Shown: positions 6,501-51,865, numbered from the stretch's first letter. The stretch is 64,000 bases of DNA from Coleofasciculus sp. B1-GNL1-01 (GCA_040220235.1 JAVJTO010000044.1), one strand, 5' to 3'. Notes: a model not told the origin generated them from the letters alone. Translations and numbers: made by a program.

Positions 6501-8257
6501 TTCTCAAATATCTGCTTGGCAGTTGCAGCACCCGCATCAAACTTCTTGGTTACTTCGTCATCTATGTTACTAAGAACGTCTTCAACCTTTTTCTTCGTAT
6601 CTTGGTAGATACCATTAATATGGTTGGCAATTTTAGTCCGTTCCTGGGTATCCTTGCCCTGAGTTTCACTCTGAGCGCCCATCACCTGATTCAACAGTTG
6701 TGAACGCTCACCATGCATTCCCTGGAGCTGAGTTTGGCTCGTCGTTTGTGCCTCAGCTTCAGCCTTATTGATAGTGGCTTTTTCATCCCGACTATAGGTT
6801 TGTGGGGCTTCTTTAGCGTGGGTTTGTGCTTCTTTCTTCGCACTTAGCGCGTCCACAAACTGTGGTTCATTTGATTTTTCCAGTGTCTCTTCCGGGACTT
6901 TCGCCTTGGCTAACTCGTCATCTAGTTCTTGACTATTTGCCTCAAACGGTGCGGATACTTCAGAATCAGGTTTTGGCTTAGGTGCAGCTTTCTCGGCATT
7001 AATATCAGTTGGCGCTGCTCCCGCCTCTGGCGGCTGCATTGGCGTGACGGGTTTCGGTTCAACACCACTGGTATCCGGGGCGGCTTTGGTTTTCTCCTCA
7101 ATCGGACCGGCTGCTTTTTTCTCCTCGTCAGTTACCTGAGAGGAGACATCCTGCTTCACCGCATCAAGCTGATTACTCTCCTTGAATTTTTTAGCGTCTT
7201 CTTCGTTATCAGGAATAATTGCGCCAATTTTTTCCATCAGCTTTGCCTTGAAAGCCTTCGCATTAAAGGTTCCAGGCTGCTGCTGGTTCATTTCCCCAAC
7301 TTGTTTGTCTTGCGCCTTACTCTCTACTTCGTTACCCGGAGGTTCAGCGGCGTCTTGGGCTTCTTTGGATTCAGCTTCGGCGGGGTCATGCTGTTTTTCT
7401 TTCTCAGCCACTCCCTTTGCCTTATCGACCACACCCTGGAATTCTGGGTCTTCTTCTGGGGAACTGGGAGATGTTGCTCCCCCGCCGCCTGGGGTAGCTG
7501 ATGCCCCACCTGATGCTGCACTTTCTGCTGCCGTTTGTTGAGTATCACCTTCTGTTGTTGCTACATTGCCACCCGCTTCTGCCATCTCTGGTGCGGCTGC
7601 TGCACTCCCAGCTTCATTAGCTACCTGGGGAGTGGCTGGAGCGGCGTTACCACCGGATGCTGGCGCGGGTGCGGGTTGTGCTGGTTGGGGTTTATTCTCT
7701 TTTACTGTTTGTTCTTGGGGATTTTCTCGGCGTTGGATTTTCAGTTGTGTCGGAAAACCCGATACCAGGCGTTCTTTTGTCTGTAACTTATTTCCCTTTG
7801 TCCCAACTTGGCTATCGGTTTTCGCCTGAACTTGACTGCCATTTTGCTGAACAACATGAGTTAATTCATGCGCCAATAATTCCTGTCCTGGCTGATTATC
7901 CGGTTGATATTCTCCCTGTTTAAAGAAGATATCTGTACCTGTGGTAAATGCCTTGGCTTGAATTGACTCATTCAGTTTGTTGGACTTACTGTCAGTGTGA
8001 ACCTGAACTTGACTAAAATCCGCCCCAAACGCCTGCTCCATTGGCTGGCGTATTTTATTAGAGATTGGCTGTCCGCTACCTCGTTTTTGTTCAATCTCCT
8101 GTTCTATATTTGGTGCAGCCTCGGCTTCACTGTCGGCTATTTCCTGACGCTGGATAGTACCATCTGATCCGGAACCATCGGAGGCTGCTGCTAGAGAAAT
8201 CTCGTCACGCTCTTGAGTTTCTTCTTGCTCTTGAGTCAGAGGCAGAAGTCCCCCTGT
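3551..8257 (-). CDS. DUF4157 (eCIS-associated) polymorphic toxin with C-terminal DNA/RNA non-specific endonuclease; apparently 5'-truncated
   Basis: GQELLAHELTHVVQQ DUF4157 motif; C-terminal NASHLIADQFLGSG...NLITTSAHYNQ His-Me-finger-like motif. The frame stays open about 72 codons upstream of the ATG at 8041 (...EIEQKRGSGQPISNKIRQPMEQAF) to a stop at 8258-8260, with no ATG in that stretch. Confidence 0.8.
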   Translation of the reverse strand, partial: TGGLLPLTQEQEETQERDEISLAAASDGSGSDGTIQRQEIADSEAEAAPNIEQEIEQKRGSGQPISNKIRQPMEQAFGADFSQVQVHTDSKSNKLNESIQAKAFTTGTDIFFKQGEYQPDNQPGQELLAHELTHVVQQNGSQVQAKTDSQVGTKGNKLQTKERLVSGFPTQLKIQRRENPQEQTVKENKPQPAQPAPAPASGGNAAPATPQVANEAGSAAAAPEMAEAGGNVATTEGDTQQTAAESAASGGASATPGGGGATSPSSPEEDPEFQGVVDKAKGVAEKEKQHDPAEAESKEAQDAAEPPGNEVESKAQDKQVGEMNQQQPGTFNAKAFKAKLMEKIGAIIPDNEEDAKKFKESNQLDAVKQDVSSQVTDEEKKAAGPIEEKTKAAPDTSGVEPKPVTPMQPPEAGAAPTDINAEKAAPKPKPDSEVSAPFEANSQELDDELAKAKVPEETLEKSNEPQFVDALSAKKEAQTHAKEAPQTYSRDEKATINKAEAEAQTTSQTQLQGMHGERSQLLNQVMGAQSETQGKDTQERTKIANHINGIYQDTKKKVEDVLSNIDDEVTKKFDAGAATAKQIFENYVDQKMEAWEDERYGEWYDVTGWDERISDSWHGLPPEVNQFFVDGRQKYLDSMDGTLTDIANFVAQKLNEAKQKIAEGKQKIQEHVAGLPENLRKVGQDAAQNIQGKFEQLEESVNSKQDELIDSLAQKYSENLQELDADIEKRKEANKGLKDKAKDAIVGTVQTIMQLKDMLMGVLAKAAGAVEKIILDPIKFLGNLVSGIKQGFQNFVGNIWEHLKKGLLGWLTGTMAKAGIQMPESFDLKGIFTLVMQVLGLAYDSIKSRTIKALGKNGEKMFNGLEKTFEVFVILKNEGLAGLWQFIQDKIGDLKVMVVDTIQNFVIESVIKQGVLWVISLLNPASAFAKACKMIYDIIMFFIERGSQIVELVNAVMESVKAIANGALGGAAKLIENALSKALPVVISFMASLLGLGGISKKIQEIIQKVKEPIDKAIDWLIAQAVKFAKKIGKKLGFGKGKNKGKKEGEQQGENEGEQLEDSEVGKTVNFSGGDESHRLWIKTQGTSTTVMVASTPTPVEAKLNEWQGKLDSVPEEKRPQAQSLLGKARQHLGTTEQKAQKTAKEMEEAKQNSTDEKAINEAEQADNQTEAAQETLADVLKQLCDLFGDTLDGVNLVERFSSQLQAAAPQAKAGLQTGLEQLQEAGGDYADWNAVKNTLMTSGTSNKAGKMLQSPLNLDHDYGTYGHNNMAVPALELAVEDVESQGKPVPEKAKNNPGGYVSDHKGSLHNRQGSFPQSKTRLQEHIFDAGKRNQAEDILIDEFLGNLLSGKESTHNLYEPKNLTRYDVGDDGSTAIEYDTHGGAHFRVELAPNKMVKSVQGTSLKLKADAGVTGRGYTARSPGYERNENLNASHLIADQFLGSGYKDSANLITTSAHYNQVVMKGAEDAIKEFVQENNAVEFDMEVNVTWGKLSSPEVIEEILEELPKKDKDEVRDEVQAFVNRVQPNFKRCMNVRYKVTVVNGVTNKPVTFRRNIGADVWLGLNHS

Positions 8258-10209: not shown

Positions 10210-10581
10210 GTGAAGAGATGGCTTGTCTTCAAAACTGAATCCGCCTCATCGCAGGGGTGGAAGGAGCGCAAGTTGCAACCTGCTGGACACTTAACCCGAA
10301 TGCTGGCTGAGTATTTGGATTGTTCTGATAAGATGTTGCCAGAATCAGGCGATCGCCCGCGTGAGTTTGCTCGTTTTGAAGAGTCGGTTGATCCAAACTT
10401 CCCGGATGCTAGCACTCATGTTCGTTGGTCTGACTGGGAAGTGAGTCGGGTTGAGCGATTCAAGTCGGTTGATTCGGCTGAGTATGACGAGATTGTTGTG
10501 TGCTATTGCCGTTATTCACCCATTGAGCCGGAGTGGAAGGAGTTACCTAAGATTGGCGTTTTGCAAGAGGGTAAACTTTAA
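10210..10581 (+). CDS. Hypothetical protein, paralog of 44374-44760
   Basis: Shares WxVxKTE..GW..RxL.PAG, GDR.RE, DW.V and IVVCYCxYxPI motifs with the ORF at 44374. Confidence 0.7.
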   Translation: MKRWLVFKTESASSQGWKERKLQPAGHLTRMLAEYLDCSDKMLPESGDRPREFARFEESVDPNFPDASTHVRWSDWEVSRVERFKSVDSAEYDEIVVCYCRYSPIEPEWKELPKIGVLQEGKL

Positions 10582-39401: not shown

Positions 39402-39749
39402 TTGAAACAACTCGTTGAATTTTCCCTAGACGATGACTCTACGTTCTTAGTCGAGGTAGATGAACCCGAAACGACGGCGGTTGAACGAGTCGCGTTACCC
39501 TCAGGACGTTTAGCCCTCAAAGCCCAACGTTCCTTTGATCAAGCACTAGATACGATTAAGCCTGTCGCCTCTAAAATTATTTCTAAACTAAACGATCTCA
39601 ACACGCCCGCCGATGAAGTGGAAGTCAAATTTGGACTAAAGTTAACCGCTGATGCAGGGGCAGTCTTTACCTCAGTCGGCGGCGAAGTCAGCTATGAAAT
39701 TACATTGAAGTGGAATCAGTCTCAGTCAAGGAAACGCGATGGCAGATAA
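39402..39749 (+). CDS. Trypsin-co-occurring domain protein (Trypco1 / CU044_2847-like)
   Basis: LVEFSLDD..FLVEV...ADEVEVKFGLKL...GEVSYEITLKW; overlaps the trypsin gene; TTG start assumed. Confidence 0.8.
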   Translation: MKQLVEFSLDDDSTFLVEVDEPETTAVERVALPSGRLALKAQRSFDQALDTIKPVASKIISKLNDLNTPADEVEVKFGLKLTADAGAVFTSVGGEVSYEITLKWNQSQSRKRDGR

Positions 39750-40605
39750 CTCCGCTTACCTAAATGCCTTTAAAACCGGGATTATTCGCATATCCCACGC
39801 CAATGGAGTTGTGGTTGGGGCAGGGTTTCTGGTATTTCCTAATTATGTGCTAACCTGCGCCCATCTGGTAGCTCAAGCGCTGACAATTCCCCCAAATACT
39901 CCCGATATGCCAACGGGTTTGATTGATCTAGATTTTCCTTTAATTGCACCGGGAAAGAAAATTAAAGCAAGGGTAGAGTTTTGGCAACCCGTGAATCCTG
40001 CGGTAGCTGGAGAAGATATTGCCGGATTAAAGTTGGAGGATAAATGTCCGCCGGGAGTGCAACCTGTGCGATTGGTTACAGCAGACGATGTTTGGCAACA
40101 TTCAGTACGGGTGTTTGGCTTTCCCAGTGGACATCCTGATGGCGTTTGGGCGACAGGGGTACTGCGCGGGGAATTAGGCAATGGATGGATACAAATGGAA
40201 GCGGTTAATGTCCCCGGTTATCGAGTAGAACCGGGCTTTAGTGGTGCGCCCGTGTGGGATGAAACCTTGTCGGGAGTTGTCGGGATGGCGGTGGCGGCGG
40301 AACGACAACGGGATGGGGTTAAGGCAGCGTTTATGATTCCCACAAAGGTGTTGAGTCAAGCTTGGTCGATGCTCGGTCAATTTGTTCACACGGCAATGAA
40401 ACCTAAACCCGCATTGAGTTTAGTTCAGCAAGCAAAAGCTAGAACTCGACAGAAAACTTTGGAAAGTTTAATAGCTGATTATGAAAATACTTATAATCAA
40501 TTGAATTATACATCAAATGCCGCTGAGCGCAACATGATTAAACGACAGTGTGATGTTCTTGAGCAGGAAATGACCGAAGTCGCCAACGTACTTGATGCAT
40601 TATGA
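39739..40605 (+). CDS. Trypsin-like serine peptidase with C-terminal effector-associated (EAD9-like) helical domain
   Basis: Catalytic triad LTCAH / EDIA / GFSGAPV; C-terminal LIADYE..YNQLNYT..AERN.IKRQ. Confidence 0.88.
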   Translation: MADNSAYLNAFKTGIIRISHANGVVVGAGFLVFPNYVLTCAHLVAQALTIPPNTPDMPTGLIDLDFPLIAPGKKIKARVEFWQPVNPAVAGEDIAGLKLEDKCPPGVQPVRLVTADDVWQHSVRVFGFPSGHPDGVWATGVLRGELGNGWIQMEAVNVPGYRVEPGFSGAPVWDETLSGVVGMAVAAERQRDGVKAAFMIPTKVLSQAWSMLGQFVHTAMKPKPALSLVQQAKARTRQKTLESLIADYENTYNQLNYTSNAAERNMIKRQCDVLEQEMTEVANVLDAL

Positions 40606-40728
40606 ATCATGAATTAAAATTTTCTATTCCCTGTATTTCGACCAGCCTGTTGGTAGAGACGTTGCAGGCAACGTCTCTACAATCTAGGAAAAAATGGTTC
40701 TATAATAATGTCAGATTGGGTATGATCA

Positions 40729-41739
40729 ATGACCAATGCCATAAGCACTAAGAAAAAGATGCTTCAGGCTCGGCTTGACCAATTAATAGTGGATTATGAG
40801 AGTCTATATCAGCAATTAAATTACACCCAAAATCAAGCCGATCGCAATCAGCTTAAGCGACAAGCAGAGGATGTATTTCATGAGATGGAAAGGGTGGAAG
40901 CCCAACTGAATCAATGTCAGTCATCTAATACAACTTACAACGACAATTATAAGAACTGGGAAAACCATTTACCTAAGATTAATTATTCTCAAGCCAGTAA
41001 ACTGTTTAATCGCATTTTTGACCACTTTGGCGAAAAAGGGGGCGCTGTCTTTTTCTTACTCCAGAATTGTCATCCCATGGGTGGAAAGTGGTGCATGGAA
41101 AAGATTAAAACTTCTCTCAAGGATAAAGGGGTGTGGAGTCCCCGTGCGGTCGGCTTTGCCGCCTGGGAACAGCCGAATCCCACAGATTTTATCCAGCGCT
41201 TGGGGGCTAGCTTTAACCTGGAAGATAATACCAGTCCGGTAGAAGTCGCGACTCAACGCCTAATCGATAAAATTTATAACTCTTTGCAAATTGACAGCAC
41301 CGTATTTCTGGAGATTCGACTCTTCTCCCTGGATAGCCAATCTGACTTTTTAGCCTGGTTAATTCCTCAATTCTGGATTCCTTTAATCAGCCGCTTACCA
41401 TTAATTCGCCAAGACCTTCCCTTGGTTAAATTTGTTACCGTTATGGTGGTGGAGACGAAAATTCCTCAAACTTGTCGGTCTCCCGCTCTATTTTGTCAAG
41501 GGGGTAAGTTGAGTAGCAAGAAGATTATTGAACTAAAATTAGGCAACTGGACGGAGAAAGAAATCAGAACTTGGTTATATCGATACTCCGGTTTGGCGAC
41601 GCCTAATATAGGGCGGACGCCAAGGGAAATTGAGCAGATGTCTCGTATGGTTTACCAAGTGAGCCAAGGTAGACCGATTGATGTTTATAGTTACCTTATG
41701 AACGAGTTGACTCGGGCTTTCGGAGTTGGAGGGAATTGA
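40729..41739 (+). CDS. EAD9-like domain plus inactive-STAND (iSTAND)-like protein
   Basis: N-terminal LIVDYESLYQQLNYTQNQADRNQLKRQ matches the trypsin C-terminus; no intact Walker A; lies directly before MoxR. Confidence 0.7.
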   Translation: MTNAISTKKKMLQARLDQLIVDYESLYQQLNYTQNQADRNQLKRQAEDVFHEMERVEAQLNQCQSSNTTYNDNYKNWENHLPKINYSQASKLFNRIFDHFGEKGGAVFFLLQNCHPMGGKWCMEKIKTSLKDKGVWSPRAVGFAAWEQPNPTDFIQRLGASFNLEDNTSPVEVATQRLIDKIYNSLQIDSTVFLEIRLFSLDSQSDFLAWLIPQFWIPLISRLPLIRQDLPLVKFVTVMVVETKIPQTCRSPALFCQGGKLSSKKIIELKLGNWTEKEIRTWLYRYSGLATPNIGRTPREIEQMSRMVYQVSQGRPIDVYSYLMNELTRAFGVGGN

Positions 41740-41743
41740 TGTC

Positions 41744-42676
41744 ATGAATTCGACCACTGAATATAAGTTTCAAGGGAATCCTAACGCTCGACCGAAATCA
41801 GCTCATCCGGATTCTCCCCAAACCCCTGAACCGTATATTGCCCCGGATGAATTGATTCAGGCGGTAAATTTGGCAATTTATTTGCGGCGACCGTTATTAT
41901 TAGAAGGAGAAGCCGGGTGTGGGAAAACGCGATTGGCTCGTGCGGTAGCCTATGAATTAGGATTACCATTTTATCGTTGGGATGTGCGTTCGACGAGTAA
42001 AGCTCAAGAGGGTCTTTATCACTATGATGCTATTTTACGTTTGCATGATGTCCAGATTCAGCAGTTAGAGACGCTGGACAAGAGTGACCAAAGCCGCAAT
42101 CCCAGTAATCCCAAATACTATCGCAAATTGGGCGCATTGGGGAAAGCGTTTATTCTGAAATCCTGTCCGGCGGTGGTTTTAATTGATGAAATTGATAAGG
42201 CAGATATTGATTTTCCCAATGATTTGCTTGCGGTTTTAGATGAGCCGTGGGAATTTACGATTCCGGAGACAAGGGAAAAAGTTCAGGCTGATTATCCGCC
42301 TATTGTGATGATTACCAGTAATAAGGAAAAGGGGAATTTACCTGCACCGTTTTTACGCCGTTGTTTATATTATTTTGTTGAATTTCCCAGTCAAGAGCGC
42401 TTAAAAGAAATTGTCGCGATTCACTACCAGATGCAGCAAATGACGGCTCCGGCGAGGGAATTAGTGGAGACGGCAACAGAACGATTTATTCAAGTGCGTC
42501 AGGAGGGAGGGTTGTTCAAGCTTCCCGGAACGAGTGAATTTTTAGATTGGTTGAAAGCACTGCAAACCTTTGAAAAGACGCCCTATAAGGCGGAAAAATT
42601 AGCCAAGGAGAAGCGGCTTCCTTATCGGGAATTGTTATTTAAGCTGCGGGCAGATTGGCAAAACTATGCTGTGTAG
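41744..42676 (+). CDS. MoxR-family AAA+ ATPase
   Basis: RPLLLEGEAGCGKT, VVLIDEIDKADIDFPNDLL, LPAPFLRRC. Confidence 0.93.
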   Translation: MNSTTEYKFQGNPNARPKSAHPDSPQTPEPYIAPDELIQAVNLAIYLRRPLLLEGEAGCGKTRLARAVAYELGLPFYRWDVRSTSKAQEGLYHYDAILRLHDVQIQQLETLDKSDQSRNPSNPKYYRKLGALGKAFILKSCPAVVLIDEIDKADIDFPNDLLAVLDEPWEFTIPETREKVQADYPPIVMITSNKEKGNLPAPFLRRCLYYFVEFPSQERLKEIVAIHYQMQQMTAPARELVETATERFIQVRQEGGLFKLPGTSEFLDWLKALQTFEKTPYKAEKLAKEKRLPYRELLFKLRADWQNYAV

Positions 42677-42988
42677 GGTCATTTATCTTATGTCATGTAT
42701 ACGCAAAATCGTAGGGTGCGTTAGCGTTCGCGCAGCGTTCCCGAAGGGTAGCGTAACGCACCATTTTTCTAAAAACGATAGGTAAAAATCAACCCTGTAG
42801 GGGCGACCCGTTGCATCAATTAACAACACCAATCCACTCAATAGGCTTGGGTCGCCCTCTCTTCTCGCAATGGGTAGCGAGCAAGATGCAAAGCCTGCGG
42901 CATGGCTTCGCTTAACGCACTACAATGAAACGGGTAAACTCACCCCGACAATTGACGACAGACGTGCCATGGTACGTCTCTACATGAT

Positions 42989-44053
42989 GTGAAAAACGAT
43001 ACCATTCAGCCCATCCTATCTCGCCTATTTAACCGCTTACGCCAAAGCGGATTCAACTTGGGTGTGGGTGAATATCGGGCAGCGCTAGAGGCAATTGAAG
43101 GGGGCTATGGGTCAAGTAGCTTAGAAGAACTCGAACGGGTGTTAACATTACTCTGGTGTCATTCCCGCGCCGAACAAAGCCAGTTTCAGTTCATTTGGGA
43201 ATCGGTAATCGCAGACACCTCAACGGTGGAACCGAAACCACCACGCCGCACCTCTAAACCGGAACCCTCACCAGAACCCCAAGATAAACCGCTAGCCGCT
43301 CCCTCACCTCAACCTGTAGAATCCGTGCAACCCCAACCCGCTCTAGAGTTAGCGCCGTTGCCGATTCGCGCTCCCTTTACCCCGGTTGAAACGGAAGATA
43401 CCCCCCAACTACAAACCGATAGACCCATTTCCCGCCGTGCGATGGTGTATAGTTGGCGTTATCTGCGCCGTCCGATTCTAGATGGTCCAGAGGATGTTGT
43501 GGATGAGCGGGCGACAGTGGAAACCGTGGCGCGTCAGGGATTTTTTCTCACCCCGGTTTATCGGCGTCGGGAACGGAATGCGGCTCATTTGCTGTTGTTA
43601 ATCGACCAAGATGGGTCAATGACACCCTTCCATCGCTTTACCCGTGACTTGGTGGAAACGGCGCAATATGAAAGTTCGATTGGGCAAGTGGATGTTAGCT
43701 ATTTTCACAATATTCCGGCAAAAAGCGTCTATCATGACCCCTATTTGACCCAACCTGTCCTGTTGGAGCGGGTGTTAGCCACCTGTGATAATAACACCAG
43801 TGTTTTCATCGTCAGCGATGCAGGGGCGGCGCGGGGATATCGGCGGTTAGAGCGAATTCGAGCCACGACGGAGGTATTATTTCAAATTAAGCAACAGACC
43901 AATCTGATAGCCTGGTTAAATCCCATGCCCCAAGAGCGTTGGGGGAGTACCTCAGCTCAACTCATTGCCCATCTTGTGCCAATGTATCCCATGGATAACG
44001 ATGGATTAAGTCATGCGATCGATATTGTACGCGGACAGCCGTTGTCACCGTAG
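42989..44053 (+). CDS. vWA-domain protein (MoxR partner)
   Basis: LLIDQDGSM MIDAS-like motif, IVSDAGAARG, AWLNPMP..RW; Pro-rich linker. Confidence 0.85.
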   Translation: MKNDTIQPILSRLFNRLRQSGFNLGVGEYRAALEAIEGGYGSSSLEELERVLTLLWCHSRAEQSQFQFIWESVIADTSTVEPKPPRRTSKPEPSPEPQDKPLAAPSPQPVESVQPQPALELAPLPIRAPFTPVETEDTPQLQTDRPISRRAMVYSWRYLRRPILDGPEDVVDERATVETVARQGFFLTPVYRRRERNAAHLLLLIDQDGSMTPFHRFTRDLVETAQYESSIGQVDVSYFHNIPAKSVYHDPYLTQPVLLERVLATCDNNTSVFIVSDAGAARGYRRLERIRATTEVLFQIKQQTNLIAWLNPMPQERWGSTSAQLIAHLVPMYPMDNDGLSHAIDIVRGQPLSP

Positions 44054-44171
44054 GGGCGCACCGACGTGCGCCCTTTACCGACGTGCGCCCTTTGCTGACG
44101 TGCGCCCTTGTACCCATTACCATGCCGCTATGGTGTGTTACCGTTTGCGAGCCAGTAGGATAAGGAAAACA

Positions 44172-44381
44172 ATGATTAAATCAGGAACGGGTGACTCCTT
44201 GGATTATGACCCAACTAAAGAAAACGTTCACGCAGCAACTGATCCAGATAAATGTAGGGACATGGAACGCAGAAATGGGTGGAGATTAAAGAAAATCAAG
44301 CCAACACGCGATCCGACATTGAAAGTTGATTGCGTATTCTATGGTGAACAAACAACATTTGAAGATGAACGCTATGACTAA
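44172..44381 (+). CDS. Small hypothetical protein (69 aa)
   Basis: AAGGA ribosome-binding site before the ATG; stop overlaps the next start. Confidence 0.55.
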   Translation: MIKSGTGDSLDYDPTKENVHAATDPDKCRDMERRNGWRLKKIKPTRDPTLKVDCVFYGEQTTFEDERYD

Positions 44382-44760
44382 AGTTAAAGCTGAAACCTGG
44401 ATTGTTTACAAAACCGAGACAATGAGCGCTCCCGGATGGGAAAATCGTCAACTGCTACCAGCCGGATCGATGACCGACATAATCAGCGAAGAATGGGATA
44501 GTTCCGGTCATCTCCCCAAAATAGGCGATCGCATCCGCGAGTATACAAATTTAGACAATCCAGAACAAGGCGGAATTACCCATAGTCGGGATGGAGACTG
44601 GGTTGTCACCACGATTCACCAGTTTTCTTCCCCCGACACTCCTACTCATATTGTTGTTTGTTACTGTTCTTACCAACCCATCACACCTAACTGGGTCAAA
44701 CTCAAGCGCGGGAAACCGGTAAATGACATGCTCGAAACGGTTAGCACTGGGGTTGAGTGA
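44374..44760 (+). CDS. Hypothetical protein, paralog of 10210-10581
   Basis: WIVYKTE...GWENRQLLPAG...IGDRIRE...GDWVV...IVVCYCSYQPI. Confidence 0.7.
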   Translation: MTKVKAETWIVYKTETMSAPGWENRQLLPAGSMTDIISEEWDSSGHLPKIGDRIREYTNLDNPEQGGITHSRDGDWVVTTIHQFSSPDTPTHIVVCYCSYQPITPNWVKLKRGKPVNDMLETVSTGVE

Positions 44761-44860
44761 ACTATCACAAGAGAGCATGTCAAGGAAAGCAGATAATGTT
44801 TAGGCGTTGGGTGATTCACCTAAGAAGGCTGACGCTGCTTACGTCGCGATCGCGCTATAT

Positions 44861-44990
44861 AGTTGTAGGTTGGGTTGACGCTTGTTACCCAACAGAATCT
44901 AGGGCTAAAGCCCTGACTACGAACGAGTTGTAGGTTGGGTTGACGCTTGTTACCCAACGGAATTTAGGGCTAAAGCCCTGACTACGAACG
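44861..44990. repeat. 65-bp tandem duplication of a REP-like composite unit
   Basis: Two near-identical copies of AGTTGTAGGTTGGGTTGACGCTTGTTACCCAAC...AGGGCTAAAGCCCTGACTACGAACG ending 3 bp before the FGE start. Confidence 0.9.
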
Positions 44991-44993
44991 AAC

Positions 44994-46583
44994 ATGAATA
45001 CCGCCACTGTAGCTAACCGAGATAAGGAAATTGCCAGACAACGGGTGAACCAATTTGTCCGGCGATTTGAGGAATCTTATCGGCTTTTGGCGTATCATGC
45101 GGCACTTCCTTTGGTGCTAACCCCGGAACTGCTCAATTATCTGCGGAATCAATTTCTGCGCGGACAAGTGCCTTGGCTGGCGGAAGTGGATTTGTTGCTG
45201 TCGGATTTGTGTAGTCCGGTGGGGTACGAACTCTATGCTATGGATACCGCCGTTCGTGCCTATTTGCTGGAGGAAATGCATAATGATGCGGCACTCTCCA
45301 GCCAACGGATGCAGGAGGTGGCTCGATTATTATTGGGGTATGTTCGCCATCTGGCACAGACGAATCCGTTTATTAGTAAACAGGAATTAGAGGCGCAACA
45401 GTGGGCGGCAATGGTGTACCTTGATAACCAGCGAGAAAATGCTGTGCGTCAGATTGTGCAAGCGTTTCAAGAGAGTCGGGCAATCGGGGGAAGTCGCTGG
45501 CAAACTGAAATGGCGCGTTTGTCCCGAATTACGCAGGAACTTGCCCCTCAATTAAGGGCTTACCCAAATCTGTTGGAGTATGCTGAGTTAATTACTCGCT
45601 TTGTGGCTGAACCTGAATCAGTGAATCCCGAAGCTGGGACGCATTCCTACTCAGTTCTAGGGGAAAATCTGGACATCCCGGAGGAATGGATTGCTGAAGG
45701 TACGGGTTCATTTCCTCCCTTGCAGGTGTTTGAGTTTGAGGTGGTGACGGTTGATAAACAGGGTAATATCATTGACAAAACTCAGGAGCAAGGGCAATAT
45801 TTTCGGGAAGATTTGGGCAATGGTGTCACCTTGGATATGGTGGCGATTCCAGGAGGGTCATTTCTGATGGGTTCTCCCGATACGGAAGCAGGACACAGAG
45901 ATAGTGAAAGTCCCCAGCATTCGGTAACGGTTCAACCCTTTTTCATGGGGAAATACCCGGTAACTCAGGCACAATGGCAGGCGATTGCTAATCTACCTCA
46001 AGTCGATAAAGAACTTGACCCTGACCCGTCTAATTTTAAAGGATCAGATCGACCCGTTGAGCAAGTATCGTGGTATGATTGTGTAGAGTTTTGTGCGCGG
46101 TTATCGCAGTACACAGGACGAGACTACCGACTTCCTAGTGAAGCCGAGTGGGAATATGCCTGTCGTGCGGGAACAACAACGCCGTTTCATTTTGGTGAAA
46201 CGATTACTACGGATTTAGCCAATTACGACGGCAATTATACTTATGGTGAAGGTCATAAGGGTAAGTATCTTAAAAAGACTACCCCGGTCGGGAGTTTTCA
46301 GGTAGCGAACCCCTTTGGCTTATTTGATCTGCATGGAAATGTGTGGGAATGGTGTGCTGACCATTGGCATGATAGTTATGAAGGTGCGCCGCCGGATGGT
46401 CAAGCTTGGTTATTGGATGAGGATGAGGATGAAAATGATAATCATTCTCGGCTGTTGCGCGGTGGTTCGTGGATCCTCAATCCCAGGTACTGTCGTTGTG
46501 CTAGTCGCGACAGGGATACCCCTGTCATCAGGTTCAACTACTTCGGGTTTCGGGTTGTCTGTGGTGCGGCGTGGACTCCTTAG
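44994..46583 (+). CDS. FGE-sulfatase (C-type lectin fold) domain protein; probable DGR target
   Basis: [46 protein letters not shown]...GFRVVC. Confidence 0.92.
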   Translation: MNTATVANRDKEIARQRVNQFVRRFEESYRLLAYHAALPLVLTPELLNYLRNQFLRGQVPWLAEVDLLLSDLCSPVGYELYAMDTAVRAYLLEEMHNDAALSSQRMQEVARLLLGYVRHLAQTNPFISKQELEAQQWAAMVYLDNQRENAVRQIVQAFQESRAIGGSRWQTEMARLSRITQELAPQLRAYPNLLEYAELITRFVAEPESVNPEAGTHSYSVLGENLDIPEEWIAEGTGSFPPLQVFEFEVVTVDKQGNIIDKTQEQGQYFREDLGNGVTLDMVAIPGGSFLMGSPDTEAGHRDSESPQHSVTVQPFFMGKYPVTQAQWQAIANLPQVDKELDPDPSNFKGSDRPVEQVSWYDCVEFCARLSQYTGRDYRLPSEAEWEYACRAGTTTPFHFGETITTDLANYDGNYTYGEGHKGKYLKKTTPVGSFQVANPFGLFDLHGNVWEWCADHWHDSYEGAPPDGQAWLLDEDEDENDNHSRLLRGGSWILNPRYCRCASRDRDTPVIRFNYFGFRVVCGAAWTP

Positions 46584-46649
46584 CCCTTGACACTTTTGCC
46601 CTTTTCCCCTCTGTCCTTTATTCTTTTCCCTTTTCCCGCCTGCGGCGGG
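46452..46649 (+). other. Putative DGR variable region plus downstream GC hairpin
   Basis: Codons at the variable lectin positions all end in C/T (ATC CTC, TAC, AGT, GAC, GAT ACC, GTC ATC, TTC AAC TAC TTC); hairpin CCCGCC-TGC-GGCGGG at 46635-46649; avd follows. Confidence 0.7.
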
Positions 46650-46739
46650 TCGATTTTTTTTTTTGAGATTTATACGCAAGGGTGGCAATAATCGTCTGCC
46701 AGAATACCTCCTGTAACTTTTTAATGTACGATTGAGTCT

Positions 46740-46872
46740 GTGAGCGATTTACCGATTATCCAGAAAACCTACGATTTAATTCGCTGGTACATCCCGATTC
46801 TTAACCGCCTGCCGCGAAATCATAAATTTCTGTTAGGTACTCGGGTCATTAGCAGATTGTATGATCTCTTAG
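46740..46872 (+). pseudogene. avd: Truncated DGR accessory variability determinant (four-helix bundle)
   Basis: [44 protein letters not shown], then the sequence runs into repeat DNA; only about 44 aa resemble Avd. Confidence 0.78.
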
Positions 46873-46942
46873 ACAGACCGAGCATAAATTATAGCACGGT
46901 AATTTGTAAGGGTATGGCAATGCTGTACCCCTACCATTGGTA

Positions 46943-47153: not shown

Positions 47154-47435
47154 TTAGATATCGGGGTATTTTCTCGCGTTATGAAGAACACGGAGGATAT
47201 GTACCTGATTGTTTTTAACTCGGTAGACCACAAAATAGGGTGTCTTTGAGATAACCAACTCCCTTGTCCCTTCAACGCGCCCGGTTCTTCCCATATATGG
47301 GAATTTTGCTAACTGCTCAACCGCTGCTTGTATTTTTAAAACAGTATTTGTTGCAGCGTCTGGGTTATCTTCGCAAATGTAGGCATGAAGCTGCTCAAGG
47401 TTGCGTAGTGCTTTGCGTAACCATCTAACTTTCAT
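47154..47435 (-). CDS. RelE/ParE-family toxin
   Basis: VRWLRKALRNL...YI...FPYMGR.GRVEGTRELV...PYFVVYRV...ILRVLH. Confidence 0.9.
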   Translation of the reverse strand: MKVRWLRKALRNLEQLHAYICEDNPDAATNTVLKIQAAVEQLAKFPYMGRTGRVEGTRELVISKTPYFVVYRVKNNQVHILRVLHNARKYPDI

Positions 47436-47667
47436 GGGTCAACCGAGCAAAGACGGCGGTTACCTCGTCTTCACTGGCAAAATCCCCAGCATCAGCTTCA
47501 GCGATACCCTGCTGAATCTCTTTGAGTTGCCACTGATGCATTTCCAGGTAAGTATTAATTGCCTGATTCAATACGTAGGTTAAATTACGATCCATACCAG
47601 CAGCAATAGCATCCAGTGCAGCTCTTTTATCAGGATCAAGTCGAAAGGTTACATTTTCCTTGCTCAT
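47425..47667 (-). CDS. CopG/RHH antitoxin
   Basis: NVTFRLD...LDAIA..MDRN..YVLNQAI...IQQGIAEADAGDFAS. Confidence 0.88.
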   Translation of the reverse strand: MSKENVTFRLDPDKRAALDAIAAGMDRNLTYVLNQAINTYLEMHQWQLKEIQQGIAEADAGDFASEDEVTAVFARLTHES

Positions 47668-47883
47668 CAGACAGGTCCTTCGTTGAGGGTTGGTTGAAAT
47701 GCAGCGGCACTCTTTTATCATGCACTGTATTGCATTGCATTGCAAGAAGAACGTTACCTGACTGGATTCGGGTACGAACCGAACACCTGCGCCGCGCCAG
47801 ACGTCGCATCCGCTTACAAAGGGACTGCAATCAGGGTAACTTGAGAGGGCGCAGGTCCTTGCGCCCCTACCCAAGATACGATG

Positions 47884-48366
47884 TCACTCTTGAACGGTAG
47901 AAGTCACCGCATCCGCATCAAAAACTACCTCGAACTGTGCATCAGGTATCCACTTTGCCAGAAAGCGCTGGTGATTTTGGGCTTCTGTGCGACTGTAGAA
48001 GCGAGCAACCGTATAATGTTGAGCATTCGGCAAAAGCCTCACCAGTGTCCAAGGATAATACTGTTGACTCCAAAAGCTGTGGTTAGACTTGGGTGATGGT
48101 TCGGCTGTGCGCCCACATCCCCGATGCTCCAAAATAGAACGAATCATCGCTAAAAGTCGCTCTCGCTGTGGCGTTCCATCATTGGGTAACAAACTCCACT
48201 CGTTGATTGGTGTGGGTAGCCAAGTCAAGCGATAGGTCATCGAATCTTTGCGAATATGCCAAGACAGGCGGCGTGGCTGTTTGCGACAGTTGAACCCATC
48301 GGCGCGAAAAGACGCAACAATCCTGTCGCCTTCAGCTTGCAGGCGAAGCCATTGAGAATGTTTCAT
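47884..48366 (-). CDS. Hypothetical protein
   Basis: C-terminal PWTLVRLLPNAQHYTVARF.SR.EA....L...IPDAQFEVVFD resembles a small cyanobacterial domain. Confidence 0.6.
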   Translation of the reverse strand: MKHSQWLRLQAEGDRIVASFRADGFNCRKQPRRLSWHIRKDSMTYRLTWLPTPINEWSLLPNDGTPQRERLLAMIRSILEHRGCGRTAEPSPKSNHSFWSQQYYPWTLVRLLPNAQHYTVARFYSRTEAQNHQRFLAKWIPDAQFEVVFDADAVTSTVQE

Positions 48367-48656
48367 TGTTATGATGATTGTGATTGTTTTTTGAGAAAGG
48401 GCGATCAGGCACAAAACATAAGCGATCGCCCCTTATCTATGGAAGGCTTTCTCAAAACTTACACACGAGGCGATTGAAATCGCAGCTACACATAACATAA
48501 GTTTGTATAGCTCCATGATGGAACATGAGAGCAACGTGCTTCGTGTGAGAAACTACACCATAGAGAGACAGGGAAACAAGAAGTATCGGGACTTCTAATA
48601 GCGTTTCCCCCGTCAGTTTTTTGCTGTTAATGCACCACTGTGGTGCATTGCTAAGT

Positions 48657-48905
48657 ATGATAATAGACGATCAGAATCCAGATTTCAACCCCAATGTGCC
48701 AACTCTCAAACAAGTTCGTGAACGCTTAGGTATGACCCAAGAGCAGTTTGCAGATGCACTAGGATTATCGCGAAACACGATTAATCGGTACGAACGCGGT
48801 ATACACCAGCGCATTGCTCTTTCTGTGGGTCAGATCAAACGACTTGTCGAACTCATGAAGCAAGCAGGATTATCAATAGAAGACTTACCCGACGATATCG
48901 AATGA
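48657..48905 (+). CDS. XRE-family HTH regulator (copy 1)
   Basis: LKQVRERLGMTQEQFADALGLSRNTINRYERG. Confidence 0.88.
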   Translation: MIIDDQNPDFNPNVPTLKQVRERLGMTQEQFADALGLSRNTINRYERGIHQRIALSVGQIKRLVELMKQAGLSIEDLPDDIE

Positions 48906-49092
48906 GTTAGCATCAGCTAGAGGCTTGAACTATAACTCGTTGTCTTTCCCATCACCTCCTAGTCTTGGCGTCGTGTGAGAAACTTACCCATAGACAGATA
49001 GGGAAACAGGAAGTATGGGGACTTCCCCAAACGTTTCCCCATCCTTTTTGTTTTGTTGTCCAATTAGGACAAGTTGTCCTTTGCTGATTAAA

Positions 49093-49335
49093 ATGGTAGA
49101 CGATACAGATTGGAATAGCAACCCTCACTTGCCAACTCTTAGACAAGTTCGTGAACGCCTGAATATGACTCAGGAAGAATTTGCGCGTGAACTGGGGACA
49201 ACAACCAGAACCATTGGACGTCACGAACGAGGGGAACACAAGCTGAGGCTGACTTTAGGGCAAATCAAACGTTTGAAAGAACTTCTCGAACAAGCAGGAA
49301 TGTCAATCGACGACTTACCCGACGATATAGATTGA
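49093..49335 (+). CDS. XRE-family HTH regulator (copy 2)
   Basis: LRQVRERLNMTQEEFARELGTTTRTIGRHERG; offset 430 bp from copy 1, including upstream DNA. Confidence 0.88.
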   Translation: MVDDTDWNSNPHLPTLRQVRERLNMTQEEFARELGTTTRTIGRHERGEHKLRLTLGQIKRLKELLEQAGMSIDDLPDDID

Positions 49336-49468
49336 GACAATATCAGTTCATCCGGTGTCTCAAGACTAGGCAGAAACAGGGATAGAGCAAGACTGAGAGA
49401 CGGTATGCGATCGCGTGTTTTGGGGTGGAGAATGCGATCGCACATCCAGCCTTCCCTCGTTTAAGTGT

Positions 49469-50461: not shown

Positions 50462-50650
50462 ATGGAAGCCATCAATATAAAAGAAGAGGCACGACGATTG
50501 ATTGATAGATTGCCAGAGAATGCGACATGGGATGACTTAATGTATGAAATTTATGTCAGAGTCGCGATAGAAGCGGGACTTGCTGATAGTCAGGCGGGTA
50601 GAATAACCTCTGTGGAAACAGTGCGTCAGCAATTCGGATTACCAACGTGA
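50462..50650 (+). CDS. Small antitoxin-like protein
   Basis: KEEARRLIDRLPENATWDDLMYEIYVR.AIEAGLADS.AGR; GTGA overlap with the toxin. Confidence 0.8.
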   Translation: MEAINIKEEARRLIDRLPENATWDDLMYEIYVRVAIEAGLADSQAGRITSVETVRQQFGLPT

Positions 50651-50953
50651 AGGTTTTTTGGACAGACACAGCCGTCAAGCATCTTTCCGGGATTTATGCC
50701 TACATCGCCCAAAATTCACCTCAATATGGGCGTCGAATGGTTGATCGTCTGACGAGACGAGACGTTTGAACAGATTGCTGCGTTTCCGGCTTCAGGTCGA
50801 ATGGTGCCAGAGTTTGAGAGGGAAGAAATTCGTGAAATGATTGAGGGGTCTTATCGGATGATTTATTACATTAAACCTGAGCAAATCGATGTACTTGCTG
50901 TGATCCATGGTTCACAACAAATCACTGAAGATTATCGCCCATCATCGGAGTAA
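50647..50953 (+). pseudogene. RelE/ParE toxin, frameshifted at a GAGAC duplication (about 50755-50765)
   Basis: VKVFWTDTA...YIAQNSP...VDRLTRR, continuing in another frame as EQIAAFPASGRMVPEF...YRMIYYI...VLAVIHG. Confidence 0.85.
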
Positions 50954-50962
50954 AATATTCTG

Positions 50963-51372
50963 ATGATTCAACAGGCGATCGCACTCCTCAATCAGGTTGG
51001 CTTAGAACTTACGGCAGAAGAGATGCGCGGTTATCGCAGTACACAGGACGAGACTACCGACTTCCTAGTGAAGCGGAGTGGGAATATGCCTGTCGTGCTC
51101 GAACAACAAAACCGTTTCATTTTGGCGAAACGATTACTACGGATTTAGCCAATTACAACGGCAACTCTACTTTTGGTGAAGGTCATAAGGGTGAGTATCG
51201 TGAACAGACTACCCCAGTTGGGAGTTTTCAGGTAGCGAACGCCTTTGGCTTATTCGATATGCATGGAAATGTGTGGGAATGGTGTGCTGATCATTGGCAT
51301 GATAGTTATGAAGGTGCGGCGTGGACTCCTTAGCCCTTGACACTTTTGCCCTTTTGCTCTCTGCCCTTTATT
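50963..51372 (+). pseudogene. Collapsed paralog of the FGE/DGR target gene
   Basis: 51024-51318 aligns to 46094-46388 (about 20 mismatches); 51319-51372 aligns to 46569-46622; 5' piece [20 protein letters not shown] is out of frame. Confidence 0.9.
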
Positions 51373-51865
51373 GTTTTCCTTAAAACTGATAGTTTAGCAT
51401 ACGCTTGTCCGGAAGACCCAAAGTTAGTCGTCACGCATAAGTCAAAAGGAACAAGTCAAAAGATGGAAGATTTAATATCTAAGTGTTATTGGTTTTGGAG
51501 AATTGCAGCGGATGATTCGATTACTGGGCTGGTGTTCTAGTTCCTCCGCGTACCTCTGCGCCACCCTCTGCGTCCTCTGCGTTAAAAAATATAATTCTGA
51601 TACCAACAGATTTGATATCACCTAATGTGTGGATGAGCAAAACCTAGGAAAAGGGCGGGTTTTGTTGAAAAGTTATCAGTGATATGTTTATTGAATCCCT
51701 AAACCCGCCCCTACAGTATTTCTAAACTAATAAACCCTGGCAATACTTCCTCCACTGAGTCTGGCAATTCCAGATGACTACTTTAGCAATTAAGCTGGCT
51801 TCTCGGATACCATCTTCTCCACCAAAATGCCAAACCGCTTATTGTTTACACTCCCCCACAACTAA

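Follow-up and report, generated by a model that had tools for sequence, protein, structure and literature searches.

Ternary systems that combine a MoxR ATPase and a vWA protein with an iSTAND component were described by Kaur, Burroughs, Iyer and Aravind (2020; PMC7159879) and by Kaur et al. (2021; PMC8195603). In the passages of these papers on iSTAND systems, an EAD stands at the iSTAND N-terminus, followed by MoxR and a CoxE-type vWA, and a second EAD copy is found on an adjacent trypsin-like peptidase with Trypco1 beside it, as at the locus described here. EAD9 is named there as a recruiter of signalling components, FGS/FGE is the commonest effector (about 22%), and in a minority of the iSTAND systems vWA-L plus effector are placed on a separate gene, which again resembles our locus. 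Unlike here, the link to diversity-generating retroelements (DGRs) is quantified, in the relevant part of PMC7159879, for VMAP systems and not for iSTAND.

Doré et al. (2024; PMC10907252), in their account of clade 5 (5E, cyanobacterial) DGRs, likewise report a CLec/FGE target whose neighbours are MoxR, vWA, trypsin and Trypco1, and also degenerate loci, diversification in trans of loci without a reverse transcriptase (RT), and coexisting intact and broken variants. They present such targets as putative antigen sensors and propose adaptive immunity, a proposal that, in the same account, still awaits a test. The adaptive-immunity circuit drawn for this DNA in the earlier note is a hypothesis already published in these accounts (Kaur 2021; Doré 2024), not a new inference, and the operon adds one example to an architecture and an immunity hypothesis already in print. 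In the passages concerned, Vallota-Eastman et al. (2020; PMC7517822) describe dispersed kinase-CLec and other targets and suggest that, after selection of a variant, the parts needed for diversification are discarded; they differ from the present account in their signalling reading, and these passages hold no cross-species test of common lesions. A search for experimental tests of such systems, with most subscription journals outside its range, returned only computational papers.

The iSTAND cluster, its lectin target and its EAD9 domains

We analysed a stretch of 64,000 nucleotides (the window) from Coleofasciculus sp. B1-GNL1-01 (genome G000). The cluster, entirely on the plus strand, begins with a Trypco1 gene (39402..39749; 115 aa, TTG start; PF19493, E 2e-25; NF041216), which overlaps by 11 nt the gene of a trypsin-like serine protease (39739..40605; PF13365, Trypsin_2, E 1e-13) with a C-terminal EAD9 at aa 227-287 (PF19962, E 5.6e-16). 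It continues with an EAD9 (aa 4-63; PF19962, E 4e-20) fused to iSTAND (40729..41739; PF19995, E 1.4e-13), a MoxR AAA+ ATPase starting 4 nt behind it (41744..42676; AAA/AAA_5), a CoxE-type vWA without fused effector (42989..44053; PF05762, VWA_CoxE, E 4.7e-10) and the FGE/C-type-lectin gene that is the DGR target (44994..46583; PF03781, FGE-sulfatase, E 2.3e-59). These six co-oriented genes had been named in the earlier note, and all have Pfam matches above the cut-off; the profile searches that it had called for succeeded with Trypco1, EAD9, iSTAND and FGE and failed with Avd, which stayed below the cut-off. The trypsin triad (H42, D93, S168), rightly called intact, is invariant in 27/27 aligned homologues. 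MoxR has intact Walker A (GEAGCGKT at 55) and Walker B (VLIDE at 145) motifs, and the vWA protein has a MIDAS-like motif (DQDGSM at 206). iSTAND, which scores 52 bits against PF19995 (cut-off 24), provides the third component of the ternary system, and no Walker A consensus is visible at aa 86-130 of this protein, which points to an inactive STAND. Based on these domains and motifs, the cluster is almost certainly an iSTAND-type MoxR-vWA ternary system, and the family assignment made previously was correct.

No VMAP-M/VMAP-C third component was matched among the window proteins, and a VMAP ternary system was ruled out as the identity of the cluster because that component is absent from them. 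A VMAP gene was found in a neighbouring system of G001, which G000 has lost.

The core genes are all under purifying selection. Indeed, dN/dS against G001 and G003 is 0.05-0.07 for MoxR, 0.10-0.16 for vWA, 0.08-0.14 for the catalytic part of the protease, 0.25 for the iSTAND core and 0.06-0.16 for the N-terminus of the lectin target. The whole chain is present in 3/9 genus genomes. A promoter scan gave 19 sites for 13.2 expected, and PADLOC left 6/8 proteins without a match, the other two matching as generic protease and P-loop stretches.

Repeats occupy gaps of 312 and 233 nt in the cluster, and two small unnamed genes (44172..44760, plus strand; ~69 and ~128 aa, without Pfam or NCBIfam match) are inserted ahead of the target. 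This pair is present in G003 and missing from G001, has paralogues elsewhere on the same contig and probably consists of passengers; in the ESM Atlas, the 129-aa protein matched unnamed cyanobacterial clusters only. The separation of the vWA gene from its target by these two genes and the destroyed cassette set the locus apart from the published iSTAND systems compared here.

The lectin target is composed of an all-helical N-terminal domain (aa ~6-235) and an FGE/C-type-lectin fold (aa 281-522), in a structure model with a pLDDT of 84. By Foldseek it matches Treponema denticola TvpA (PDB 2y3c, E 1.4e-14), whose C-lectin fold is likewise of the FGE type and whose variable repeat also lies at the 3' end; however, TvpA is described as an outer-membrane lipoprotein, whereas the target here begins with the helical domain and lies within an ATPase-protease operon. 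We assigned the helical domain to the vWA-L linker of Kaur et al. (2021) by its position and the wording of the corresponding passage, not by a profile. The effector slot of the vWA protein is occupied by a lectin on an adjacent, separate gene; in G013, in G017 and at two further G000 loci, vWA likewise has this N-terminal domain behind it. In the ESM Atlas the domain matched unnamed cyanobacterial clusters only; among the 120 matches listed, it carries elsewhere a C-terminal caspase, CHAT, TIR or GUN4-family (PF05419) domain. No vWA was fused to it in the three internal-match proteins scanned (of 150 listed), and it was not found in the local fused vWA-FGE proteins.

An EAD adaptor had been suggested for this operon, and the idea gains support, since the EAD9s on the protease and on the core protein co-vary across 8 loci. 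The mean identity of such pairs is 0.56 within a locus and 0.26 between loci (permutation p 1.5e-4), or 0.64 versus 0.24 at 6 loci when three orthologues are collapsed (p 0.0014). In G004 the protease domain is retained (94% identical) and both EAD9s have been replaced together, and in G013 and G017 a further EAD9-tailed gene, TIR-like by eye, belongs to the same iSTAND-MoxR-vWA-target chain. At the focal locus, identity between the two EAD9s is just 40%, and they are at least as close to the EAD9 of the VMAP system lost by G000 as to one another. The complex prediction for the two domains scored 0.20 (mark 0.32), which speaks neither for nor against their pairing.

The variable repeat and the remains of the DGR cassette

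The variable repeat (VR), which had been placed at 46450-46570, was located at 46449..46573 on the plus strand, with 17 variable codons (aa 494-517). Compared with a template that comes from another organism (L095, a metagenome sequence), it is changed at 15/30 adenines and at 0/95 other bases (Fisher p 1.7e-11), and column entropy at the repeat is 3.05 versus 1.05 bits. This adenine-only pattern marks the lectin tip as a genuine DGR variable repeat, and the receptor was once DGR-diversified, in agreement with the earlier note. A constant GC-rich 3' end and a hairpin behind the target have a role in DGR homing. Both hallmarks are present here, the hairpin (6-bp GC stem, 3-nt loop, T run) at 46635..46649 on the plus strand; related targets have this loop in one or the other orientation.

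An intact template cassette was found on L095/L096, two contigs identical over 4741 nt and counted as one sequence. The constant-3'-end pattern matched 2 contigs (one sequence) in metagenome_contigs and had 0 matches in viral_contigs; with the template pattern, 1 locus was recovered from genome_contigs, namely L098, which belongs to a Pleurocapsa MAG and is a DGR of its own. The L095/L096 locus shares 92-93% identity with G008:C97 and about 87-90% with G004:C152, neither of which has the cassette. In G017, the same chain is accompanied by an intact avd-RT-TR, and 14/14 VR/TR mismatches are at adenine. In addition, the L095 template has also diversified Ser/Thr kinase-FGE genes.

In the window, what had been listed as an avd gene (46740..46901, plus strand) is a frameshifted, truncated pseudogene, in which the first 45-49 codons and a 7-nt insertion precede a break at a palindromic repeat; it matches 43/104 profile positions, below the cut-off. 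Sequence comparison revealed an 86-nt remnant of a DGR reverse transcriptase (47754..47839, plus strand; about aa 283-312 of 352). Between the two remnants, on the minus strand (47154..47667), sit a ParE toxin gene (47154-47435; PF05016, E 1.8e-20) and an RHH antitoxin gene (47425-47667; RHH_1, weak, E 0.014); the pair is common to G003 and its RHH part to G001. We detected no template repeat, no full Avd above the cut-off and no DGR-type RT in the 172-contig assembly of G000, and none of the 9 genus genomes (G000 and 8 congeners; completeness 96-100%) contains a template, a DGR RT or a full-length Avd. In the passages of Doré et al. (2024) on this point, by contrast, each DGR class retains one complete locus per genome. 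In a family survey a full RT was present in 3/52 genomes versus VR-like motifs in 32/52, and in the phage collection 3 records matched, with RT matches of 111 nt only. The other 8 RVT_1 matches in the genome were rejected as DGR RT by their length and their identity (≤31%) to DGR RT.

We conclude that the DGR cassette is very probably dead in this genome. The wiring of the operon to a DGR, as claimed previously, is not confirmed, and the lectin is not currently made hypervariable from this locus. Since the cassette is destroyed, one allele is predicted at 46450-46570 in this strain, unless a cassette hides in unassembled DNA, and clonal deep sequencing would probably come out blank.

Common lesions and different tips

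The avd and RT lesions are common to three species (G000, G001 and G003), the avd junction is also found in G008, and the lesions were also seen in contigs of 3/3 DNA runs. The orthologous VRs of the three species differ at 19-20 of the 30 A sites, like unrelated VRs (14-21), in genes that are 95-97% identical; as a control, a paralogous VR differs at 2/125 nt between G000 and G007. Because species with common lesions carry different tips, while the paralogous tip is near-constant across species, the tip was probably rewritten after the local cassette had died, in trans or by recombination. Compared with the loci in the relevant part of Doré et al. (2024), the same lesion here spans several species with different tips. 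With this pattern, the activity of a DGR can be dated relative to its loss. It also suggests that diversified receptors are counted too low in genome surveys that take the RT as their starting point.

At least 11 natural tip alleles were counted. With six genes, catalytic motifs all intact and natural EAD9 swaps in addition, the system makes a compact test case. P0135, P0259 and P0261 all have the G003 allele without change, in spite of differences at up to 13 residues elsewhere. In the G001 comparison, differences at third positions were 1/40 versus 20/147, a modest effect (p 0.035).

Most simply, the rewriting would have been done in trans: a second cassette, sharing the template and located elsewhere behind a kinase-FGE gene, would have acted on the tip and would have been lost later, lineage by lineage. 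Against this, the glucosidase locus of G000 has neither a kinase-FGE gene nor a cassette scar. It is somewhat unlikely, in our opinion, that new tips arrive instead by homologous recombination or gene conversion, from cassette-holding strains or from paralogues. The target does share 95-99% identity with G003 in its N-terminal half and 83-93% over the FGE domain, and part of the ruined system downstream (51024-51322) has 98% identity with a paralogue in G004 versus 93% with the neighbouring target. The G003 VR has 8/95 non-adenine mismatches to the template, so part of its change may stem from another template or from tandem-paralogue gene conversion, and these changes resemble paralogues of G003. 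However, such mismatches number 0 in the VR of the window and 1 in that of G001, and P0263 (the G001 orthologue) and P0264 differ by 1 change in the first 496 residues, at 16/17 VR sites and by a short C-terminal insertion, which is the footprint of retrohoming. An active cassette missing from the assembly (in a gap, on a plasmid or in minority cells) appears highly improbable: none of the 9 genus genomes has one, and an RT gene, being unique DNA, should assemble. It would nevertheless agree with an assembly in 172 contigs, with related cassettes on cyanobacterial plasmids (7 records, 67-70% identity), with the 0/40 third-position non-adenine differences between the window and L095 VRs, and with the passage of Doré et al. 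(2024) on intact beside degraded variants in one population.

Proposed working of the system

We favour, with a probability of about 0.6, an iSTAND-type MoxR-vWA conflict system with a frozen DGR-made receptor. The lectin tip would bind a foreign ligand in the cytoplasm, and the helical domain of the same protein would dock on the separately encoded vWA. MoxR, via vWA, would remodel the complex and set an ATP-dependent threshold, while the iSTAND scaffold would hold the protease by EAD9-EAD9 pairing. The protease, with Trypco1 as a partner, would then cut a host target, and the cell would be stopped or killed; one fixed tip would now be carried per lineage. An anti-invader function with a protease output has about even odds.

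The opposite wiring, in which iSTAND does the sensing, the protease is switched on by MoxR and then cleaves or releases a lectin that binds or traps invader molecules as the effector, is in our view unlikely. Randomisation at 17 codons is better suited to a recognition domain than to an unvarying output, and the iSTAND core is conserved; on the other side, iSTAND is predicted to be the invader sensor in the passage of Kaur et al. (2021) concerned, both wirings are presented in that of Doré et al. (2024), and the varied C-terminal domains found on the target N-terminal domain, among the 120 matches listed, fit an effector slot. We consider it slightly less likely still that the filament uses the system for signalling, cell-cell recognition or differentiation instead of defence. 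Cyanobacterial DGR targets are viewed as regulatory ligand-binding modules in the passages of Vallota-Eastman et al. (2020), the kinase-FGE genes share the template, and no PADLOC model fits any of the 8 proteins beyond the generic stretches; however, among close relatives the system is gained and lost like an island and exchanges its effectors, with the whole chain in only a third of the genus genomes, which, like the adjoining toxin-antitoxin genes, fits conflict systems.

We tentatively suggest that the DGR machinery of the genus might be a rare transient mutator, with many write-once tips, no enzyme in most lineages, and tips refreshed only when a cassette-bearing segment or a minority strain passes through. 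This speculative reading is based on the 0/9 genus genomes with a cassette, on the survey counts for RT and VR-like motifs, on the common lesions with unrelated tips and on the P0263/P0264 pair. If it is true, fixed receptors for a protease-armed death circuit would be kept in stock by populations as a library, with the diversity generated in few cells and preserved in many.

Four features of the window were absent from the earlier note: the small gene pair, the ParE/RHH pair, the RT scrap and, at 50950..51379 (plus strand), what is left of a second system of the VMAP type. In this ruin, the start of its vWA gene is joined to an FGE fragment, from which the whole variable repeat has been deleted between two 6-nt direct repeats.

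Gene content of the operon and the proposed circuit

Six long open frames lie on the + strand at 39402-46583, in the order given by the earlier note, and their products all match Pfam profiles above the cut-off: Trypco1, a trypsin-like protease with a C-terminal EAD9 domain, an iSTAND protein with an N-terminal EAD9 domain, an AAA+ ATPase (MoxR), a CoxE-type vWA protein and the lectin target, a 529-aa protein with an FGE-sulfatase domain at residues 281-522. The Trypco1 and protease genes overlap, MoxR starts 4 nt after the end of iSTAND, and the remaining intergenic gaps are occupied by repeats. The catalytic triad said to be intact, H42/D93/S168, is indeed invariant in all 27 aligned homologues, which were picked among 120 listed of 375 matches. 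MoxR keeps its Walker A and B motifs and the vWA protein its DxDGSM motif. The closest named homologues, among the matches listed, are labelled Coleofasciculus, a filamentous cyanobacterium. In a structure model of the lectin target (mean pLDDT 84) the N-terminal domain is all-helical, and the C-terminal fold resembles PvdO, formylglycine-generating enzymes and the DGR target TvpA. Two small unnamed genes between the vWA and lectin genes are present in the genus genome G003 and absent from another, G001.

Compared with the G001 and G003 orthologues, all core genes show purifying selection (dN/dS 0.05-0.27), which is much weaker on the EAD9 domains (0.18-0.88). The operon belongs to the iSTAND ternary family and is not decaying. 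Its two EAD9 copies are just 40% identical to each other, and the EAD9 pair co-varies over eight loci (0.56 within a locus versus 0.26 between loci). In the genus genome G004 the protease is kept and both EAD9 copies are exchanged; in G013 and G017, two further genomes with the same chain, the matching EAD9 sits on a different enzyme, TIR-like by eye.

According to Kaur et al. (2020, PMC7159879), who defined the iSTAND systems, FGS is their commonest effector, Trypco1 is paired with trypsin, and EAD9 is a recruiter of signalling peptidases via homotypic pairing. Kaur et al. (2021, PMC8195603) describe a minority of these systems in which the vWA-L-effector is on a separate gene, and they propose that DGR-linked FGS domains are counterparts of adaptive immune receptors. 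Sensor-first wiring is proposed by Doré et al., who state that the function is untested (2024, PMC10907252). The circuit advanced in the earlier note is not new but the standing published hypothesis. In the probable working of the system the lectin tip would be the sensor and the helical linker of the target would dock on vWA; MoxR could act as a threshold driven by ATP, iSTAND as a scaffold recruiting the protease, and the output would be proteolysis leading to cell arrest or death. The gene parts, motifs, selection and EAD9 co-variation are observed; the working of the circuit we infer. The reversed wiring, as in Kaur et al., and a role in signalling are less probable alternatives.

The lectin tip and the remains of the DGR cassette

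The lectin tip, whose variable repeat (VR) spans 46449-46573, was written by a DGR. This VR agrees with the VR of a kinase-FGE gene (contig C100) at every constant position except one, and the two differ mostly at codon positions 1 and 2; a single skeleton underlies ten VRs taken from five genomes of the genus. When metagenome contigs were searched for the constant 3' end, two proved to carry a kinase-FGE target together with a template and complete avd and RT genes; they are identical over 4741 nt and were counted as one observation. Against this template the window VR is changed at 15 of 30 adenines and at 0 of 95 other bases (p 1.7e-11), and twelve other VRs at 12-20 and 0-8, respectively. 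The coding potential of this template is about 5.6e16 peptides, none of them interrupted by a stop. The iSTAND-MoxR-vWA-target chain of G017, a family member, retains avd, RT and template; there, all 14 mismatches fall on adenines, and the locus shows what this type looked like ancestrally.

The DGR-diversified lectin announced earlier stands as regards the tip, but the DGR itself is gone. The avd, listed as a gene in an otherwise mostly right observation, is a pseudogene: its match spans 43 of the 104 profile positions, and relative to intact avd it carries 7 inserted nt near codon 48 and ends at 46901, running into a palindromic repeat. Located 3' of it, on the - strand, are a ParE toxin and an RHH antitoxin, followed by 86 nt of the RT 3' part (47754-47839). 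The assembly of this organism, G000 (172 contigs, 100% complete by markers), contains no template, no Avd above the cut-off and eight RVT_1 matches, 0 of DGR type; nine of nine genus genomes likewise lack template, Avd and DGR-type RT. Among 52 family genomes, a full DGR RT is found in 3 and the VR-like motif in 32 (control, 0). The DGR part of the locus is a ruin; the locus works like a DGR target and is no longer a DGR.

At the expected site of the RT end and template, 47837-49440 holds an unnamed gene (159-176 aa) and one or two XRE-HTH genes. An 83% identical module lies behind the kinase-FGE gene of G004:C152, at the missing cassette, with copies on G000 contigs C120, C62 and C18; it is possibly a small mobile unit. 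The loop of a hairpin behind the target (46635-46649, and ten related loci) reads TGC in five loci, its reverse complement GCA in four and GTA in one, and is degenerate in G003. Either orientation seems to be tolerated, which would fit a DNA cruciform better than an RNA terminator. G000 also encodes a 650-aa reverse transcriptase (C51:165430-167388; RVT_1 E 8.7e-17), unlike the group II intron-type ones. Two template-like repeat copies occur in G052 (C9:8966 and C89:19464), a genome without a full DGR RT match, and at L106 (G060:C51:4510-11300) an FGE target is followed by intact avd-RT among genes that look contractile-injection/tail-like by eye.

Shared lesions and different tips

G000, G001 and G003 each represent a separate species. 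In all three, avd shows the same insertion and break, the same toxin-antitoxin insert is present, and the RT scrap has the same left end. The template-removing deletion is common to G001 and G003, a fragment with the same avd junction is retained in the genus genome G008, and the avd-to-parE joint of G003 type was found on contigs from three of three DNA runs. If the tip had been frozen when the lesion arose, it should be nearly identical across the three species. A paralogous VR does behave as a frozen tip (G000:C55 and the genus genome G007 differ there at 2 of 125 nt). The focal VRs, however, are as unlike each other as unrelated VRs, with changes at 19-20 of 30 adenine sites, in orthologous loci where most of the genes show 95-97% identity and where 12-14 of 144 nt distinguish the avd remnants. 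A VR is recognisable in 16 of 18 members of the target cluster, with 11 distinct alleles. P0263, the G001 orthologue, and P0264 show 1 difference in the first 496 residues and 16 at 17 VR sites; P0264 and the other metagenome members were compared at the protein level. Two findings speak against continuous rewriting: P0135, P0259 and P0261 carry one and the same allele, and the G003 VR has 8 non-adenine changes.

The intact cassette lies in a glucosidase/kinase-FGE/transporter locus that shares 92-93% identity with G008:C97 and has a counterpart in G004:C152; these two lack the cassette, each differently, and at that locus G000 has the glucosidase and no kinase-FGE. The simplest history we infer is that of two cassettes with one template: the operon-side cassette would have died first, and the other would have rewritten both targets in trans before being lost lineage by lineage. 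The main rival is that tips were renewed through recombination with cassette-bearing strains; local drops in identity over the FGE domain show that paralogues do undergo conversion. That the machinery is in this genus a rare, passing mutator and not a resident gene set we consider rather unlikely. Doré et al. (2024, PMC10907252) reported loci that have degenerated, activity in trans and intact variants that coexist with broken ones; Vallota-Eastman et al. (2020, PMC7517822) reported targets remote from the DGR and the removal of its parts. A search of largely open-access literature revealed neither an experimental test nor any mention of a lesion shared across species.

Second system and neighbouring genes

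A remnant of a second system lies at 50950-51379. In G001 and G003 a VMAP-MoxR-vWA-FGE cluster comes after the first system; the window keeps just the start of its vWA gene, fused to an FGE fragment whose VR was lost by deletion between 6-nt direct repeats. At 50463-50953 there is a second toxin-antitoxin-like pair, whose ParE/RelE-like gene (by eye) is frameshifted here and intact in G001. Behind the VMAP system of G003, which is without DGR machinery, about seven stand-alone FGE genes with differing VRs stand in tandem (C51:348800-357200, L031/L032), some interrupted by transposases.

The two small genes between vWA and the lectin gene form an unnamed unit (a CxxME-type small protein and a 123-129 aa protein), inserted in the operon at 44172-44760; it has no Pfam match, and Atlas gives unnamed cyanobacterial clusters. 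Its paralogues, at G000:C44:122699-123493 and at about 10210-10581 of the window, have unrelated genes as neighbours. G000 has three further MoxR-vWA clusters (contigs C97, C151 and C82). In one of them vWA and FGE are fused in a protein of 1030 aa; in the other two the same helical-linker gene again stands separately, with different C-terminal parts. Finally, 3551-8041 (- strand) encodes a 1496-aa protein, whose repeated start we take to be DUF4157-like, followed by small genes that resemble immunity genes by eye.
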